IMG/VR virus record: IMGVR_UViG_3300020029_000037 | Location: 1-6,075 of that record | Strand: one strand, 5' to 3' | From: a virus | DNA length: 6,075 nt | Part shown: positions 122 through 6,075 of the stretch, one piece after another | How the letters are laid out: every line of letters begins with the position of its first letter | How positions within the stretch are numbered: the first letter of the stretch is position 1 | Notes under the pieces: generated by a model | Told to the model about the DNA's origin: nothing | Databases searched by the model: none | The model's input: the letters and a program-made list of their open reading frames with translations, nothing else | Program-made: the position numbers and the translations under genes

Positions 122-1039
122 TACGGAGGATTTGAGATTGAACCGTTCAACACACAAAGACACAATACGCTTAACCAGAGGAGACTTGCTAAAACGTGCA
201 TAAGCATCAGCAGCGGCAATCGAACGCGAGACTTCGTCTTCTTGTTTAAGATATCTAAGATAGTATCGAGGAATCGAGTAATTGTAATTGATACGCTTCT
301 CAAAATCAAAATAAGACCACGTCGAAACACGAGTAGAAGGACGAGGCATAAAACCAAGGAAATCACCAACGCCAGCAGATACGAATTTTCTCGTATAACG
401 GCGATGTTGGAGGAGGCAAGATAAAGGTGTAAGGTTTCCATTTACGGTAACGTATTTGTCCGAAATTTCTTCGGGATTAAACTGAATCTGTTTAGTAACA
501 TACTTAACGCAATAACGAGCACGCTTATGGGTAGCTTTCGCTAACCACACAAAACCAAGATCTCGAACAGTAGAACGAATCGTATTGTACAAGACATCGG
601 TGCCAAACAAAAAGCCATGAAAATGCAATCGAGGCTCATTTCCTGTTTCTGGGTGAGTACCAAACTCCTGAAAAAAAGCGTGTTTAAACGAATGGCCTAG
701 CTTATGGCGCAGACGTTCATTGAAGCGGCGGATGAACCAAGAAGGATCAAGCAAGGCTTTGTCGTAATACTTCGGAGCAATCGTTATTGTAATAAAAATA
801 GCCTGCCGACTATTAGCCTTACAATAAGCCAACTCACGCTCGAGGCGAACGAACCAATCATTGCGTTGACGGCGCAGACACTCTTCGCACCTTCCGCAGG
901 GGACCATAAGCCACTGGCGGGCGATATCCCAGGGGCGAAGGGCTAAGGCAGACTTAGCAACATCGGAACCGTCGCGACAAGGGTTCTTTTTGTCGAAATA
1001 ACGACGATTACGTATCCATATGGGCGATAAGCAAGGCAT
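1..1039 (-). CDS. VP4: Replication initiator protein (HUH rolling-circle endonuclease, Microviridae A/VP4 type), N-terminal 346 codons; continues across the circular junction
   Basis: Manual translation of the - strand from ATG (1037-1039) has no stop down to position 1. The protein begins MPCLSPIWIRNRRYFDKKNPCRDG. It has a Cys cluster PCGRCEEC (878-901), RCR motif 1 FITITI (779-796), the HUH motif LHFHGFLF (H139/H141, nt 617-625) and the two-tyrosine motif YCVKYVTK (Y176/Y180, nt 500-514). The ORF is missing from the supplied track because it has no stop inside the left edge. Confidence 0.92.
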   Translation of the reverse strand, partial: MPCLSPIWIRNRRYFDKKNPCRDGSDVAKSALALRPWDIARQWLMVPCGRCEECLRRQRNDWFVRLERELAYCKANSRQAIFITITIAPKYYDKALLDPSWFIRRFNERLRHKLGHSFKHAFFQEFGTHPETGNEPRLHFHGFLFGTDVLYNTIRSTVRDLGFVWLAKATHKRARYCVKYVTKQIQFNPEEISDKYVTVNGNLTPLSCLLQHRRYTRKFVSAGVGDFLGFMPRPSTRVSTWSYFDFEKRINYNYSIPRYYLRYLKQEDEVSRSIAAADAYARFSKSPLVKRIVSLCVERFNLKSSVSRRETYTWEQKQIMRFSASSRKMPDFDPPTWLDLDILQFW

Positions 1040-1239
1040 TAGAACAAGCTCTGAAGACAATCAAACTTAATACAAGGCTTCTCGAGGCGACAACGAATGA
1101 GGTAATCTTCAGCGGGGGCTTTGTCGGCAAACCAAGCGATAATAACTCGTTTTTTGCCGCGATATGCACCAACGGAGTAGCGACAGGGAACGCAATTAAC
1201 TATTGGAGAAAATCTAGGCCGGAAATCAAAATAATCCAT
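1039..1239 (-). CDS. Hypothetical 66-aa Cys-rich protein, translationally coupled to Rep
   Basis: ATG at 1237-1239. The stop TAA (1039-1041) overlaps the Rep ATG (1037-1039), giving TAATG. It is the first ORF after the main intergenic region. It has five Cys (C16-x2-C19 ... C50-x5-C56-x4-C61) and a net basic charge. I recognise no family. Confidence 0.55.
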   Translation of the reverse strand: MDYFDFRPRFSPIVNCVPCRYSVGAYRGKKRVIIAWFADKAPAEDYLIRCRLEKPCIKFDCLQSLF

Positions 1240-1258
1240 ATCTGAAAAATATTATTAT

Positions 1259-1287
1259 GCGCTTCGAAAGACGGTACTTTCGAGCGC
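1259..1287. other. Stable hairpin next to an AT-rich tract, just upstream of the first gene
   Basis: gcgc(t)tcgaaag pairs with ctttcgagcgc: 11 bp with one bulged T (1263/1264) and a 6-nt loop (1271-1276). On the - strand it is followed by GCATAATAATATTTTTCAGAT and then ATG. Confidence 0.6.
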
Positions 1288-1297
1288 GAAAACTATT

Positions 1298-1355
1298 CCG
1301 TTCGCCGCCCGACGGCCTTAACGGCCGAGACGCTTCGCGTCTTCGGGCTCCACGG
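1298..1355 (-). other. GC-rich three-way junction (Y-shaped fold) with a GCGAAGC mini-hairpin on the - (viral) strand; candidate ssDNA origin or priming element
   Basis: Outer stem 1307-1312 (gcccga) pairs with 1343-1348 (tcgggc). Arm A is 1313-1317 (cggcc) paired with 1323-1327 (ggccg), with a 5-nt loop. Arm B is 1328-1333 (agacgc) paired with 1337-1342 (gcgtct), with a 3-nt loop. No junction nucleotides are unpaired. An optional 4-bp extension pairs 1298-1301 with 1352-1355. On the - strand arm B reads AGACGCGAAGCGTCT. Confidence 0.6.
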
Positions 1356-1375
1356 CTCACTTCATGAGCGAATAT

Positions 1376-1391
1376 ACCGAATAAATTCGGT
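1376..1391. other. Small hairpin in the main intergenic region
   Basis: accgaa-taaa-ttcggt: a 6-bp stem with a 4-nt loop. Confidence 0.4.
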
Positions 1392-1404
1392 GAATTTGAG
1401 AGCT

Positions 1405-1438
1405 AAAAAAATCCCAGGGGAGAGCGACTCCCCTGGGA
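1405..1438 (-). terminator. Rho-independent terminator closing the - strand transcription unit
   Basis: The - strand reads TCCCAGGGGAG-tcgct-CTCCCCTGGGA followed by TTTTTTT (A-run 1405-1411 on the + strand). The stem is 11 bp (8 G:C) with a 5-nt loop and a U7 tail. It starts 46 nt after the stop of the last ORF (1485-1487). There is no T-run on the + strand side, so it works in one direction only. Confidence 0.8.
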
Positions 1439-1484
1439 GCCAACGGACTAAAGGACTCGGCCTCCAAGCGGACGAGTTACTATT

Positions 1485-1808
1485 TTAGTCCCTTTTCCCT
1501 TCTTCTTTCGCCGTGCTTTCATCACAATCAAGTTCAAGATCAAACATAAGGACAATCGTATTGTCGAAGAACTCAATGCAAAAATTGGAAAAAACTCCGC
1601 AAGTGCCAATGAGATCGGAAACTTCCGAGTGATCGATGTAGAGCGAATCACTAATGCTCGAACTCTTCAGATAAGACGCAATAGGAGACTTCGCGATAGC
1701 ATCAAAAGGAATAGAAACAAACTGAGCGTCTTTGACGCGACCTACTTGGACGAGGTCAATTTTTAAAGCCGGATTAACCCGACGAATAACAACATGAATC
1801 TGTGTCAT
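1485..1808 (-). CDS. Hypothetical protein, 107 aa from ATG 1806-1808 (the track's 120-aa version starts at a TTG at 1845-1847)
   Basis: This is the last ORF before the terminator. The ATG lies 11 nt after the stop of the upstream ORF (1820-1822). The track's start at 1847 is TTG and would overlap the upstream gene by 28 nt. The protein has an acidic C-tail, DLELDCDESTAKEEGKRD. I recognise no family. Confidence 0.55.
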   Translation of the reverse strand: MTQIHVVIRRVNPALKIDLVQVGRVKDAQFVSIPFDAIAKSPIASYLKSSSISDSLYIDHSEVSDLIGTCGVFSNFCIEFFDNTIVLMFDLELDCDESTAKEEGKRD

Positions 1809-2140: not shown

Positions 2141-2166
2141 AATAAAATGGTTATTGGTTTACAACG

Positions 2167-2197
2167 CAAACATAGAGCAAAGGAAATAAATAGCAAA
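2167..2197 (-). promoter_or_regulatory. Candidate Bacteroidota-type promoter (TTTG -33 / TAnnTTTG -7) upstream of the 106-aa ORF
   Basis: The - strand reads TTTG(2197-2194)-19 nt-TATGTTTG(2174-2167), then 26 nt to the ATG at 2140. This is weak evidence: TAnnTTTG alone also occurs inside coding sequence at 1062-1069, 1541-1548, 1942-1949, 3900-3907 and 4574-4581. Confidence 0.28.
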
Positions 2198-2226
2198 GTT
2201 CTAGAAGTCGAAAAAGTTGTTCAATT

Positions 2227-3483
2227 TCACCTTACATAGCGACGGCTGGACTTTGTGGTACCAGCGTACCTGCCGTCCTTGCCATAAATCTCTCTACTTT
2301 CATCATAATCAACGGGAGAAGGACGCTTGGTTACAGATGTGCCGGCGACGGCCATGGCGCCAACCAAAGCGGTTCTCGCAAGGCTATAACCAAAAGCATT
2401 CTTACTTGAGCGGTTTTGGAACCAGCGGCCTGAAAGGTCTTGCTCACCTTCAGAAGCGGCGAGGCCCATAAGTTTTTGATGAATCTGGCGACCTGTCATC
2501 TTCGTTGTCTTGCCGGTAGGCTTACCCTTTTCGTTAACCTCCGGAACGTCGACGAGTGCATCCCAATTGAGATTGAACCACTCGCGAAGATCAGCCAAAT
2601 TAACCTTACGTATCTCAGACTCAACGTCTAAGACGTCACCGGAAGCGGCAGATTCGTAGGCGGCGGCGAAATCTCGAGCAATCTGAGCAGCGTAAACAGC
2701 ATCGAAGTATTTGTCATTATACTTCTTGATCTGATTCGCTTCTTCAACGTGTTTCGAATACATAGCGACAAAATCTTGAAACTTGTACGTAGCCATAAGA
2801 TCAGCATACTCGGCATCAGCAGCATGAATATCAGCCAAAGAGCGATTAAGGCGAATTAATTCGGAAACATTGTCAATGTGATGCTCTAAGGATTTCTTTT
2901 CCAACTCATCCATTTCCTTTCGCCAATCTGCGCTATGAGTATTGCCTCTCATGAGTTCAGCCTCAGCATTATCGCGATTAGCAGCAGCCTCATTGCGATT
3001 AACCGAAGAATGAGCCATCATGTTTTGTGCAATAGCAGTGGGATCAGTGGCTGCAAAACCACCAGGAGCAATGGGCGAGCCACCTGAAGGGCCGGAGGCA
3101 GAAGGCATAGGGGCAGAGCCACCAGACATCGTGGCGTTGACGCCGACACCCGAAGAGCCTAAAACGGCGGCAGGCGTTACACCAGCCTTCAAGTAGCGGT
3201 CGAAAACCTTCGTAGGGTCATTATATGCATTCTCATAATCAAACTGTCTCTGCCAATTAGCATAGGAAAGTTCAGACTGCTTCTGCATCTGCTCGAGGGC
3301 ATACTTTTGCTGAAGCGCCATTTGTTTCTGCTGAAATCTCCACTGACGGCGGGCGCTCATGCCGCCAAAAAGTTGGCCTAAAAAGCCATTAATTAAACCA
3401 GTAGTGCCAGTAGAAGCAGCAGATTCACCAAGAGAACGACCGAAGGAGGCGGAGGCAGCAGCAGCAGCAACAGGGGTAGCCAT
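2227..3483 (-). CDS. VP2: DNA pilot / minor capsid protein (Microviridae H/VP2 type), 418 aa
   Basis: The N-terminus is Ala/Gly-rich (MATPVAAAAASASF..GLINGFLGQLFGG). A Q-rich block is followed by NAYNDPTKVFDRYLKAGVTPAAVLG (3157-3225), matching the YNxP...R...AG(L/V)(N/T)P signature I recall for gokushovirus/alpavirus VP2. The central region is long, helical and rich in charged residues, as in pilot proteins. Its size and its position downstream of the capsid gene also fit. Confidence 0.85.
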   Translation of the reverse strand: MATPVAAAAASASFGRSLGESAASTGTTGLINGFLGQLFGGMSARRQWRFQQKQMALQQKYALEQMQKQSELSYANWQRQFDYENAYNDPTKVFDRYLKAGVTPAAVLGSSGVGVNATMSGGSAPMPSASGPSGGSPIAPGGFAATDPTAIAQNMMAHSSVNRNEAAANRDNAEAELMRGNTHSADWRKEMDELEKKSLEHHIDNVSELIRLNRSLADIHAADAEYADLMATYKFQDFVAMYSKHVEEANQIKKYNDKYFDAVYAAQIARDFAAAYESAASGDVLDVESEIRKVNLADLREWFNLNWDALVDVPEVNEKGKPTGKTTKMTGRQIHQKLMGLAASEGEQDLSGRWFQNRSSKNAFGYSLARTALVGAMAVAGTSVTKRPSPVDYDESREIYGKDGRYAGTTKSSRRYVR

Positions 3484-3810: not shown

Positions 3811-4107
3811 CTATTTTTCTTCAGAATCAGAGGACTTTGAAGTAGACTTAGCCTTATCTAACTGAGAATCAATAAGTTCTTGCCCAACTTCGAGGCCGTC
3901 AAACTTATCCATACGAGAGAAGGAGTTAGGGTCGAAATCAATTTCAGGGTTAAATTTCTCACCCTTCTCGAAATCAGAAGGTTCAGCCGTCACATCTGGA
4001 CGACCAGGAAGGACGTCGACGGAGCCAGAGCCGTCAAGAACAGAAAGAATGCGCTGACCACGAGAAACGTAAGTAGGGGTATCCTCAAGAAGCCAATCAA
4101 GTGCCAT
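3811..4107 (-). CDS. Acidic 98-aa protein; candidate scaffolding protein
   Basis: ATG at 4105-4107, 12 nt after the capsid stop; TAG at 3811-3813. It is strongly acidic (many D/E, C-tail KSSDSEEK). Small acidic proteins encoded beside the capsid gene are scaffolds in known microviruses. I see no diagnostic motif. Confidence 0.65.
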   Translation of the reverse strand: MALDWLLEDTPTYVSRGQRILSVLDGSGSVDVLPGRPDVTAEPSDFEKGEKFNPEIDFDPNSFSRMDKFDGLEVGQELIDSQLDKAKSTSKSSDSEEK

Positions 4108-4119
4108 AAAATCAAAATA

Positions 4120-5919
4120 TTAACGATTAGACAAACGGGTTGCAAAAGTTTTGTTAACCAAATTCTTCTTCTGAACCGCATAAGATAGATTTATGAAGAA
4201 ATTATCCTCTACGTTAGAAAAGAAAGGTGAATTAACCTGTGCCATATCCACGAAAAGCGCAGGATAATAATTAGCTTGAGCGGAGCCTAGGTACGAAAAG
4301 CCAAGCGATCTCTGCTGAACCCAATACGAATAGATAGGTTTAGGGGTAGATACAGAAGGAGCAGGATACGAAGACAAAGATCCTAATACTTCATCATAGG
4401 ACGAACGAAATTCATTGAAACAAGGCTCGTAGGCGACGGCAAGGCCAAGGTTCGAACCCGCGGCATTGCTAAAAAGCCGTGCTGCAGGAACATCCTGATA
4501 TCCAATGTCGTTATAAATGGGGTTGAAGTAATCAGAGCCTTGATAATTCAAATAATCGGGCGTTACGCCACTCCAAAAATAAATAGGACGAATGCTTAGC
4601 ATATCAATCATATAGCCAGGCTCGCGGAAGTAATAAGACTGTCGGCGACCGAGGCGATCGTTGAAGGCGATAGCACCACCTTGCTGACCAAGGGGACCTG
4701 CGGACGAATCTCCGCCGAAATTATTGAATCCGGCTTGATTCATAACAACCTGAACATTAACAGTCTGCGAAGCGCTAAACAGCAATTTAGGTCGATCGAC
4801 GTGTTCGATCTTTGAAGCAAAAAAAGTTTCCAGCCAGTCACTATAGCGAGAACCTCCAGCGCCAAGCAAATCCTTGTATTCCTGAAGTCGCGAAGCGATA
4901 GCCAGCTGTGGAATAGTGCTTACACCCGACATAGAAACAGCGGATGAGGTTCCCACGGGGATGAGGCGACTGAATCGATCGGGGTTCGAAGGCACAACAG
5001 CCATAGGATGCGCAAACAGAAAAGCCGAAATACCAGTAAGGGAGGAGCTACCTACGGCGGTGGAAAACTGACCAGTAGGGCCATCTCCAGAAATAACATT
5101 AGCACCACTGGGACGTGTGGTAGAAACAGGGTAGCCGTCTTGATCGCCGCCAGCTGGAAGTTGAGAATTAATTATCTGAAAAAACAGGTTACCTCGATTA
5201 AAGGTGTTATTTGTGCTCGAAACAGCTGACGGGTAAAACTGACTCTCAAAATAAGCATCAAGAAATTCTAGGTTAGCGAATTCCTGCTTGAAAAAAGAAG
5301 CGCTAGTACTAAAAGAGTACGAGTCGGGGAGAATCGACCAGGAAGCAGGCCATGCGATGGAATACAAGGACCACTGCGAGTAGCTATAATAATTTCGAAC
5401 GATGTCCCAATAAGCTAAATAAGTATCAGCATTTGCCCACTGATTAACCGCAGCGCCGGAAGGAAGACTAGCGGTGTAGGGAGGCTGATTAGAAAGTTGC
5501 AGCGACGTCTTGTTGGAAACGCGAAGCCAAGACATAAGCGAATTAGGAAAGGCGCGGGTAGTACCAATAGCGGAATTGGGGGTAGGAGTGCCCGAGGTGC
5601 CAACAAGGGCGGTAATCCAATTCAAACTCAACTCGTTCATATCGAACTTACTGCTATTCGTACGAAGCTCAGGGTGATACAGCTGAAGAGGCACCCAAAA
5701 ACGGTGAAGTCGAATAACATAGGGATTGAACGTTGGGACAGCAAGAGGATTGCTGCGAACGTCAACGCCTTGCTCAATAGATACGCGATCTCGGGCATTA
5801 ATAAAATCAATTCGCACTGGATATAAAATACCCGGTGTACACGTAAAGGCCTTACTCTCGGGGACATCATAGCGAGAGTAACCATTTACAGCGTGAGAAA
5901 TAAAAGGTTGTTTTCCCAT
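4120..5919 (-). CDS. VP1: Major capsid protein (Microviridae F/VP1 type), 599 aa
   Basis: This is the largest ORF, with ATG at 5917-5919. The N-terminal block PGILYPVRIDFINARDRVSIEQ...IRLHRFWVPLQLY parallels the G-L-P...PGD...FFFVP-RL block of VP1 proteins. The block IASRLQEYKDLLGAGGSRYSDWLETFF..VDRPKLL (aa 341-380) parallels the conserved LQ-W-E--ARGGTRY-E-I---FGV--D-RLQRPE block, recalled from memory. Confidence 0.95.
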   Translation of the reverse strand: MGKQPFISHAVNGYSRYDVPESKAFTCTPGILYPVRIDFINARDRVSIEQGVDVRSNPLAVPTFNPYVIRLHRFWVPLQLYHPELRTNSSKFDMNELSLNWITALVGTSGTPTPNSAIGTTRAFPNSLMSWLRVSNKTSLQLSNQPPYTASLPSGAAVNQWANADTYLAYWDIVRNYYSYSQWSLYSIAWPASWSILPDSYSFSTSASFFKQEFANLEFLDAYFESQFYPSAVSSTNNTFNRGNLFFQIINSQLPAGGDQDGYPVSTTRPSGANVISGDGPTGQFSTAVGSSSLTGISAFLFAHPMAVVPSNPDRFSRLIPVGTSSAVSMSGVSTIPQLAIASRLQEYKDLLGAGGSRYSDWLETFFASKIEHVDRPKLLFSASQTVNVQVVMNQAGFNNFGGDSSAGPLGQQGGAIAFNDRLGRRQSYYFREPGYMIDMLSIRPIYFWSGVTPDYLNYQGSDYFNPIYNDIGYQDVPAARLFSNAAGSNLGLAVAYEPCFNEFRSSYDEVLGSLSSYPAPSVSTPKPIYSYWVQQRSLGFSYLGSAQANYYPALFVDMAQVNSPFFSNVEDNFFINLSYAVQKKNLVNKTFATRLSNR

Positions 5920-5922
5920 AAA

Positions 5923-6075
5923 TTAAATAATTAGTTGAAGTTTGTAATGATCTCGCCAGAATTGGAGAATGTCCAAATCCAGCCAGGTAGGGGGATCGAA
6001 ATCAGGCATCTTACGAGAAGAGGCGGAAAAGCGCATTATTTGCTTTTGCTCCCACGTATATGTCTCTCTACGGGA
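5923..6075 (-). CDS. VP4: C-terminal end of the same Rep gene, including the stop codon; 5955-6075 duplicates 1-121
   Basis: The same frame continues 5954->5926 (RDHYKLQLII) to TAA at 5923-5925, 3 nt before the capsid ATG. Total length is 356 aa after circularisation. Confidence 0.88.
   Translation of the reverse strand, partial: SRRETYTWEQKQIMRFSASSRKMPDFDPPTWLDLDILQFWRDHYKLQLII
5955..6075. repeat. Terminal direct repeat, copy 2 (identical to 1-121)
   Basis: Same comparison. Position 5955 corresponds to position 1 and 6075 to 121. Confidence 0.97.

Follow-up and report, generated by a model that had tools for sequence, protein, structure and literature searches.

A covarying three-way junction on the packaged strand of a microvirus: a putative, optional origin-type cassette

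Known single-strand initiation signals and DNA mini-hairpins

The genome of phiX174 contains GCGAAGC exactly once, on the viral strand at 2358, within the F-G intergenic region (2285-2394). An earlier note on the DNA studied here had linked this heptamer to the phiX174 origin, and the sequence bears this link out. The primosome-recognition hairpin of phiX174 has been placed ahead of gene G in the same intergenic region (PMC9865509). In G4, GCGAAAGC is found at 3977, within the annotated RNA primer (3970-3997) and beside oric. The corresponding mini-hairpin of the St-1 and alpha3 origins is GCGTTAGC (Hirao review, PMC13037366). The mini-hairpin record further includes ssiA of plasmid RSF1010, which is capped by CCGAAGG, and the hairpin promoter of N4 (PMC13037366).

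Within the GCGNAGC class of mini-hairpins (PMC13037366, PMC3201870), those of the GCGAAGC type are nuclease-resistant and are bound poorly by single-strand-binding protein (PMC13037366, PMC3201870). The DNA mini-hairpins GCGAAGC and GCGAAAGC melt at 76.5 C, whereas r(GCGAAAGC), the RNA version, melts at 39 C (PMC13037366). A second class, d(cGNNAg), is named as a stable DNA tetraloop in a work cited by PMC3201870. Both d(GCGNAGC) and d(cGNNAg) (Hirao; Bevilacqua), which stand out among DNA loops for their exceptional stability, define a structural motif and no functional family. In the element described here, a three-way junction that we call Y, two such caps sit on the covarying arms of a single structure.

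Rolling-circle plasmids have single-strand origins (sso) and Ff phages have minus-strand origins, both of which are strand-specific, highly structured stretches of 100-200 nt without coding function, set apart from the unit of Rep and nick site. Plasmid sso and the M13 minus-strand origin are dispensable, and sso come in several unrelated structural types that are interchangeable between replicons. The terminal hairpins of parvoviruses such as AAV form the ends of linear genomes and self-prime complementary-strand synthesis from the 3' end. Like Y, they belong to a virus with single-stranded DNA and mount two short palindromic arms on a longer stem, but the genome studied here is circular and, therefore, the parvoviral mechanism cannot apply to it.

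For microviruses other than the phiX type, including the gokushovirus-like ones, our search of the literature found no experimentally defined complementary-strand origin, which agrees with the statement of the earlier note that none was known for gokushovirus- or alpavirus-like microviruses. Conserved hairpins have been predicted in two small microvirus clades, where a role in negative-strand initiation was not certifiable (PMC9865509).

Y resembles the G4-type origins (G4, St-1, alpha3, phiK) in being a cluster of stable hairpins in non-coding DNA of the packaged strand, in carrying a mini-hairpin of the GCGN(N)AGC class, and in the role proposed for it, i.e. a site kept free of single-strand-binding protein. 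However, G4 has three separate hairpins in place of a three-way junction, and Y is optional, cassette-like and without sequence similarity to that origin. The primosome assembly site of phiX174 and Y each have GCGAAGC in an intergenic region, on the viral strand, which is the only feature seen in both; Y would also be, like that site, a signal that depends on single-strand structure. The phiX174 site consists of one long A/T-rich hairpin with a flanking mini-hairpin and has no homology to Y. A sensitive blastn search of the spacer against 50,697 phage records returned only two unclassified faecal microviruses and none of the G4, St-1, alpha3 or phiX174 origins. Neither a primase start motif nor a CTG start site could be identified in the element.

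The RSF1010 signals ssiA and ssiB, which are recognized by the RepB' primase, offer a further parallel as single-strand initiation hairpins capped by CCGAAGG, a heptamer that is found in a second junction type described below. They differ in being simple hairpins that serve a plasmid-encoded primase; the phage studied here encodes no primase, and Y is a junction. The closest likeness in behaviour is to the sso and Ff minus-strand origins, since the Y module is also non-coding, structured, dispensable, represented by several types, and exchanged. Two differences stand beside it. The conserved motifs of ssoA are absent, and a sister cassette in the record MG945515 is inverted, which a true sso would not tolerate.

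The three-way junction and its spacer

The window analysed here (the whole stretch of 6,075 nt, from IMG/VR record IMGVR_UViG_3300020029_000037) has direct terminal repeats according to its IMG/VR record and represents a complete circular genome (Table 1). The - strand carries every gene, including that of Rep, which matches Pfam REP_ORF2-G2P; no primase gene is found among them, and a Shine-Dalgarno sequence precedes 0 of the start codons. The closest GenBank relatives are unclassified faecal microviruses with 72-76% identity. The host is probably not an enterobacterium, and a VP1 search of 185,579 species genomes for a prophage or a host gave 0 relatives. Microviruses package the strand of mRNA sense. 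Since all genes lie on the - strand, GCGAAGC is situated on the packaged strand, as had been proposed earlier.

Table 1. Features of the window around and beyond the three-way junction; positions are those of the window
Feature	Position	Strand	Remarks
Complete circular microvirus genome	5,954 nt		window bases 1-121 recur at 5955-6075
VP1/F-like capsid gene	4120-5919	-	
VP2-sized gene	2227-3483	-	
66-aa ORF (Cys-rich protein), start of Rep operon	1039-1239	-	ATG at 1239
Several small ORFs besides VP1, VP2-sized gene and Rep		-	
Non-coding spacer	1240..1447	-	from stop of 24-aa basic micro-ORF to ATG of 66-aa ORF/Rep operon
Intrinsic terminator	1405..1438	-	11-bp GC-rich stem 1438..1412, then T7
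Hairpin H1	1376..1391	-	ACCGAA-TTTA-TTCGGT; conserved ATA after it
Hairpin H2	1355..1369	-	GCTCAT-GAA-GTGAGC; hairpin in this genome only
Three-way junction (Y)	1307-1348	-	minimum-energy DNA fold, covariation, RNAalifold
Y outer stem	1307-1312/1343-1348		6 bp
Y arm 1	1313-1317/1323-1327		5 bp; + strand loop TTAAC
Arm 1 loop GTTAA	1318..1322	-	closed by C:G
Y arm 2	1328-1333/1337-1342		6 bp; + strand loop TTC
d(GCGAAGC) mini-hairpin, tip of arm 2	1332..1338	-	loop GAA, closed by C:G
Hairpin/palindrome H3	1259..1287	-	GCGCTCGAAAG TACCGT CTTTCGAAGCGC; 11-6-11, overlaps promoter-like site
Promoter-like site at H3	-35-like 1283..1278, CATAAT 1259..1254	-	

Along the - strand, the spacer is ordered as terminator, H1, purine-rich linker, Y, H3 and the ATG of the Rep operon. 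The 245-nt stretch 1240-1484, which includes the spacer, folds at -60.2 kcal/mol (z -8.0). Y comes after a strong intrinsic terminator on this strand, and the -10-like boxes that follow it sit right before the next ATG. Y does not have the form of an intrinsic terminator itself: it is followed by GGCGAACGGAATAG with no T-run, and a terminator scan lists 1438..1412 with its T7 and not Y. A scan of the whole window against Rfam 15 gave no relevant match, only a sub-threshold U6atac elsewhere.

The neighbouring hairpins differ in how they are retained. A stem homologous to the terminator occurs in almost all types of the intergenic region. H1 shows exchange of paired bases at alignment columns 19/26, where 33 of 56 sequences have A-T, 22 have G-C and one has C-G, and it is gained or lost jointly with Y, e.g. 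by the indel of ~97 nt that separates genomes L122 and L107. At the site of H2, relatives have the purine-rich linker GTGAAGTGRAGCC, whose sequence is conserved while the hairpin is not. H3 is nearly invariant, its loop included, with one symmetric double change in L155; it is missing from L122, L128 and L134, all of which still carry Y.

We also considered, as a candidate nick site, the 37 nt after the 120-aa ORF, which we take to resemble the nick region of f1 gene II, GTTCTTTAAT. This candidate was rejected because the segment is coding: in another frame it is the end of a 24-aa basic micro-ORF (...VTRPLGGRVL*) that is conserved across all intergenic-region types, with synonymous variation and TAA, TAG or TGA stops.

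Folding with DNA parameters gives Y as the minimum-energy structure on each strand, at -20.7 kcal/mol on the - strand (z -3.5; 0 of 200 shuffles were as good) and at -19.2 kcal/mol on the + strand (z -3.9); nearest-neighbour folding thus favours the - strand by only 1.5 kcal/mol, and the exceptional stability of the mini-hairpin is that published for the isolated heptamer (PMC13037366). The main points of the earlier description are confirmed in these analyses. The junction is found where it had been reported, with stems of 6, 5 and 6 bp, and its second arm reads AGACGCGAAGCGTCT on the - strand with d(GCGAAGC) at the tip. The 60 nt around it are the richest in GC of the whole genome, at 71.7% for the windows starting at 1297-1299 against 45.8% overall. 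No second three-way junction whose stems are all perfect and have 5 bp or more exists in the genome. When the genome was shuffled with its dinucleotides kept, 1 of 200 shuffles produced a junction of this kind; of 5000 shuffled versions of the 58-mer, 0 did.

One detail of the earlier description, the absence of unpaired junction bases, is true of this genome and not of its relatives. The A-T pair 1328/1342, which closes the GCGAAGC arm, is found in this genome only. Of 24 relatives, 23 have A..C in its place, which leaves the family form with two unpaired bases at the junction. The outermost CCGT/ACGG pairing (1298-1301/1352-1355) is likewise not retained by the relatives.

Relatives were gathered by way of the neighbouring protein, by VP1, which is blind to the motif, and by DNA patterns. 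The final pattern constrained the flanks alone; both arms and four positions of the outer stem could vary, and it yielded 33 distinct versions of Y. All 627 of the 627 stem positions examined form standard pairs, which, since nearly all versions come from one sample series and the sequences are closely related, shows maintenance of pairing and not many independent events. The four stem positions left free by the pattern are paired in 33 of 33 versions. Changes on both sides were observed in five pairs, distributed over all three stems: C-G/G-C/A-T at one position and C-G/T-A/G-C at another of the outer stem, A-T and G-C in arm 2, and G-C/A-T/C-G at one position and C-G/T-A at another of arm 1. 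The covariation score was reached by 0 of 500 shuffles, and only 16-53% stay paired when the two sides of each pair are offset by 1-3 columns. RNAalifold on 56 whole modules, with RNA parameters, independently gives the same Y and supports H1 too, and an earlier set of 24 sequences agrees with the covariation. The fold is under selection, and the prediction that relatives would keep it through compensatory substitutions has held.

The loops are restricted in a different way. Among 34 distinct versions from relatives, the loop of arm 2 is GAA in 14, GCA in 11, GTA in 5, GGA in 3 and ACA in 1. Its GC/GC flanks are invariant, so that the heptamer stays within the d(GCGNAGC) class with all four bases at N and the one ACA exception; the assignment of GCGAAGC to this class of DNA mini-hairpins is therefore sustained by the relatives. 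The loop of arm 1 is GTTAA in 15, GTTA in 11, GTTGA in 4, GTCA in 2 and GCTA in 1 of the 33 distinct versions, with a constant first G, a constant last A and a closing C:G pair. It has the form C-GNNA-G in 14 of the 33, while the 5-nt loops GTTAA and GTTGA fall outside the d(cGNNAg) class as it is defined. The arm with the G-N-A loop, GAAGACGCG-N-AGCGTCC, has the same stem in 31 of the 33. We had taken CCGTTAAGG as a motif shared with the type C cassettes described below; since its loop varies (GTTA, GTTGA, GTCA, GCTA), it is not an invariant site, and the motif was rejected.

Loops that run from G to A with free middle bases point to a sheared G.A pair on the gene-sense strand, and we know of no stabilising fold for the T..C loops of the opposite strand. 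The loop classes give the main argument for the gene-sense strand and argue, with moderate force, for DNA over RNA. Three T.G variants also occur on the gene-sense strand, although the evidence from them is weakened by the fixed A..C at the junction, which is G.T on the other strand. Among triloop hairpins over 78 genomes, 27 distinct GNA loops stand against 14 TNC loops, a bias that is confounded by coding sequence and shared ancestry and is only suggestive.

Exchange of the module among related phages

In the sample gathered by VP1, 75 of 80 genomes were informative. The Y junction (type A) is present in 42 of the 75 (56%), two of which (L131 and L163) have a tandem duplication of 109 nt and thus two Ys. 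Another 7 (9%) carry type B and its variants, a different three-way junction with arms capped by GNA triloops, and 8 (11%) carry type C, a long imperfect hairpin of ~100 nt. Only the terminator hairpin is found in 17 (~23%; types D and D'), and 1 of the 75 has a short remnant hairpin. In nine type D genomes, a check of the whole genome revealed neither a Y-like motif nor any further gap with strong structure. Several of the short forms have the appearance of a type A ancestor shortened by deletion at microhomologies.

The cassette types do not follow Rep. Across them, Rep is 76-91% identical to that of the window, and ~44% of such relatives are without Y. The types are interleaved on the Rep tree, requiring at least 7 changes, and well-supported Rep clades mix types (L098 of type A with L101 of type B; L024 of type A with L025 of type C). 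Y is therefore neither the cognate site of Rep nor essential. Together with the ~23% of relatives that have no cassette, this independence from Rep excludes an essential cis element; Y can thus be neither the only complementary-strand origin nor a packaging signal nor the site nicked by Rep. The proposal of a complementary-strand origin, with which the earlier note had begun, is accordingly a reasonable idea in that motif class and strand fit it, but not in the sense of an essential origin. Whatever role is left has to be one that is optional, portable, dependent on structure and confined to the gene-sense strand.

In these respects Y behaves like an sso: it is a structured non-coding module separate from the Rep/nick-site unit, and across the 75 informative relatives it is dispensable and exchangeable. 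A role for Y as the origin or termination site of rolling-circle replication or as a packaging signal, acting through Rep, is already disfavoured and very unlikely; its spacer does lie directly upstream of the Rep operon, Rep matches REP_ORF2-G2P, and the intergenic region of filamentous phages holds both origins and the packaging signal, but the loops vary, so that Y offers no invariant nick motif, Y is missing from ~44% of the relatives, and in the microvirus OM869680, described below, a similar junction lies away from rep.

The Y and type B junctions all lie on the coding strand, an agreement to be read in the light of their shared ancestry. In MG945515, a record marked as unverified, a sister cassette Z (a long hairpin) and H3 are inverted with respect to the genes; Y is not involved. 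We also searched bacterial genomes with the Y pattern, and the 120 matches listed were all due to chance, coming from high-GC genomes and having stems that are not complementary. No true copy of Y was found outside this phage group.

The same design recurs in other microviruses. The type B junction was found in eight GenBank relatives, where it stands atop a terminator-like stem with the arms ACAGCC-GAA-GGCTGT and CCGC-GAA-GCGG, the first of which covaries with ACAACC/GGTTGT. These relatives carry ACAGCCGAAGGCTGT, which contains the heptamer CCGAAGG. Being inside a terminator-like stem, the type B junction would be transcribed. Further variants of a three-way junction are located on the coding strand of the main intergenic region in MG945790, L148 and OM869680, and are followed by another hairpin and then by a TATAAT-like box just before the next ATG. 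In L148, the second arm has an unrelated stem, ATCCAC/GTGGAT, in which the GGA loop is kept. OM869680 is an unrelated microvirus from rodent faeces with a different gene order; its arms are ACAGGC-GAA-GCCTGT and CCGGC-GTA-GCCGG, and its junction does not adjoin rep. The first arm is less strict in these junctions, where AAC and AAA loops occur too.

Possible role of the junction

We tentatively read Y as a dispensable, exchangeable complementary-strand initiation signal on the packaged strand, comparable to a plasmid sso, and would give this reading, which leans on analogy, a probability of roughly 0.4. Y would most likely mark or enhance the site from which host enzymes, possibly RNA polymerase, primase or a primosome of the PriA type, begin to make the complementary strand once the phage has infected, on an incoming circle that would otherwise be coated by single-strand-binding protein. 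The arms may snap into hyper-stable C-GNA-G and C-GNN(N)A-G loops on the short three-way junction, leaving a nuclease-resistant island that is poorly coated. The priming machinery of the host could then recognize this island together with the GAAGACGCG-N-AGCGTCC arm and the purine-rich linker. Such an element would be strand-specific, Rep-independent, dispensable and swapped as a cassette, like the single-strand origins of plasmids. Dependence on PriA in particular is pure conjecture.

This reading draws on the selected fold, on loop classes whose stability is specific to DNA, and on the occurrence of the same motif class at known origins. Position, independence from Rep, the recurring junction design, and dispensability and exchange as in sso and M13 point in the same direction. 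Other observations speak against it. The ~23% of relatives with the terminator hairpin only must make their complementary strand without Y. Furthermore, the strand evidence cannot tell a function in DNA from one in RNA, since mRNA and packaged strand agree in sense. The inverted sister cassette of MG945515 and the lack of similarity to the G4 and phiX174 origins also count against priming.

The first alternative, which we consider unlikely, is that Y acts as RNA. Transcription would reach it past the terminator or would begin at the conserved GGTATATA box upstream, with Y in the leader, and Y would serve as a protector of 3' ends, as an extra terminator or insulator, or as a regulator of the Rep operon. 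The identity of RNA sense and packaged strand suits this view, as do the recovery of the fold by RNAalifold with RNA parameters and the type B junction, whose two GAA arms top a terminator-like stem. There is moreover a conserved TATATA-like box, which in types A and C precedes Y and in types B and D' immediately precedes the ATG. However, -10-like and -7-like boxes that are better conserved lie downstream of Y, adjoining the ATG, and Y follows an 11-bp terminator with T7 while having no T-run of its own. The loops GTTA, GTCA and GCTA are not GNRA loops, no Rfam family matches, and, given the melting temperatures quoted above, the mini-hairpin would be far less stable as RNA. Y would thus seem to act at the level of DNA.

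Slightly less likely is a selfish or neutral passenger, i.e. a hairpin cassette spread by recombination or single-strand transposition without benefit to the phage, its structure being kept for its own mobility or arising as a by-product of hairpin-driven rearrangement. Presence that varies among close relatives by clean indels (L107 against L122), the tandem duplications in L131 and L163, the swaps that are independent of both Rep and VP1, and the sister cassette in opposite orientation in another lineage would all be expected of such an element. Against it, Y always occupies the same site in the same orientation; terminal inverted repeats and target duplications were not seen, the deletion variants resemble microhomology deletions, and no true copy appeared among the 120 bacterial matches listed or outside the phage group. 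In addition, the strong purifying selection on the loop class and on the 17-nt arm sequence suggests recognition by a factor.

A protein could in principle bind Y as duplex or cruciform DNA, making it an operator, e.g. for the 66-aa Cys-rich protein, or an integration site for a tyrosine recombinase of the host, which we regard as improbable. Conservation of GAAGACGCG-N-AGCGTCC in sequence as well as in pairing is compatible with a duplex site, and the neighbouring H3, an 11-6-11 palindrome with a conserved spacer that overlaps a promoter-like site, has the look of one; the inversion of Z and H3 in MG945515 fits a site that works in either orientation. The loops that run only from G to A and the free covariation of two stems are nevertheless typical of a folded single strand, and the stems are only 5-6 bp long. 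No prophage relatives were found in the 185,579 species genomes, and the 66-aa gene is present with all intergenic-region types, including those without Y. A purely protective or decoy structure on the incoming strand, blocking exonucleases or titrating or evading host defences that sense single-stranded DNA without any role in priming, is highly improbable: mini-hairpins resist nucleases and heat (PMC13037366), and counter-defence elements, too, are often as optional and variable as this cassette, but a genome that is circular lacks ends in need of protection, we know of no precedent, and no defence or anti-defence gene is associated.

We therefore return to the initiation signal as the best reading, in which Y would be a known kind of element in a structural form of its own, a putative and optional origin-type cassette. 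As such, it is the best candidate yet for the site at which copying of the incoming strand may start in phages of this kind.

To our knowledge, complementary-strand origins within the Microviridae have been defined experimentally only for the coliphage groups of phiX174 and G4, and we know of no mapped signal for second-strand synthesis in the far more numerous microviruses of the gut and the environment. Y provides a concrete, short (~100 nt) and testable candidate for such a signal, for which nature supplies the controls in the form of near-isogenic genomes that have Y, two Ys, another cassette or no cassette at all. The element further widens what is recorded from nature for the d(GCGNAGC) and d(cGNNAg) loops, here kept under selection on a packaged single strand. 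A wider idea, which we hold to be doubtful, is that gut microviruses carry interchangeable single-strand origin cassettes, either long hairpins or three-way junctions with mini-hairpin caps, which are swapped by recombination and set which hosts can convert the incoming strand to duplex; the junction could then mimic a stalled fork for a restart primosome of the PriA type. If true, the cassette would be a determinant of host range that acts before any phage gene is expressed, in parallel with the role of sso in the host range of plasmids, and would be useful in engineering single-stranded DNA vectors for Bacteroidota-like hosts.

The H3 palindrome and duplication of the junction

As listed below, H3 is an imperfect palindrome, and both its arms and the 6-nt spacer at its centre are near-invariant among the relatives. 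One relative, L155, carries a symmetric double change in H3 (TCAAAAG/CTTTTGA), and in three of the retrieved sequences (L122, L128 and L134) the hairpin has been lost independently of the three-way junction Y. In appearance, H3 resembles an operator or a site of the recombinase type.

Two complete copies of Y are present in L131 and L163, where a 109-nt tandem duplication yields an intergenic region of 310 nt. The H3 loop and the hairpin H1 share a CCG microhomology, and since the duplication is joined at this point, hairpin-mediated template switching is suggested as its origin.

Features discussed in this part, with their coordinates
Feature	Sequence record	Positions	Strand	Remarks
TAnnTTT-like box	window	1240-1262
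H3	window	1259-1287		11-6-11, GCGCTCGAAAG TACCGT CTTTCGAAGCGC; overlap with the 66-aa/Rep operon's promoter-like site
Micro-ORF	window	1448-1522	-	24 aa, very basic (MKARRKKKGKGTKIVTRPLGGRVL); out of frame with the 120-aa ORF, whose end it overlaps
GAAGACGCGAAGCGTCC hairpin region	L059	1330-1480
Long-hairpin cassette with H3	MG945515.1 (L344/L345)	5771-5948		in VP2-VP4 spacer
Non-coding region	OM869680.1 (L346)	2143-2626		484 nt; canonical terminator and three-way junction, the arms of which carry GAA and GTA caps

Related elements in other genomes

MG945515.1, a dog-faeces microvirus of other gene order, holds H3 together with the long-hairpin cassette (the ~100-nt imperfect hairpin that replaces Y in some relatives), and the whole is inverted with respect to all annotated genes of this record, which is marked UNVERIFIED. 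The non-coding region of microvirus OM869680.1 contains an additional conserved downstream hairpin (GGTCGCAGTCGGCC..GGCCGAATCGACC), common to MG945790 and L148, and a TATAAT located 10 nt upstream of the next ATG.

In the spacer that separates their converging rep and cap genes, two 2.2-kb contigs of circular Rep-encoding single-stranded-DNA viruses (L059 and L077) have the identical GAAGACGCGAAGCGTCC hairpin, enclosed by a 9-bp G/C-rich stem (GGGGGGCGG/CCGCCCCCC). This occurrence may be due to chance, because the contigs, which come from the same sample series, were retrieved using exactly that 16-mer. The 4.4-kb contigs L047 and L062, from an unrelated microvirus, have two GCGAAGC heptamers spaced 55 nt apart, both within a putative replication-protein coding region.

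The box and the basic micro-ORF

The TAnnTTT-like box is kept at equivalent sites in every intergenic-region type, ending 3-7 nt 5' of the ATG of the 66-aa ORF, and a Shine-Dalgarno sequence was found at no gene. Both features would fit near-leaderless transcripts in a Bacteroidota-like host. The micro-ORF on the spacer's other side is kept throughout the relatives, whose versions show synonymous changes and differ in the stop codon. The putative product is similar in size and charge to the J/VP8-type DNA-packaging peptides of microviruses.
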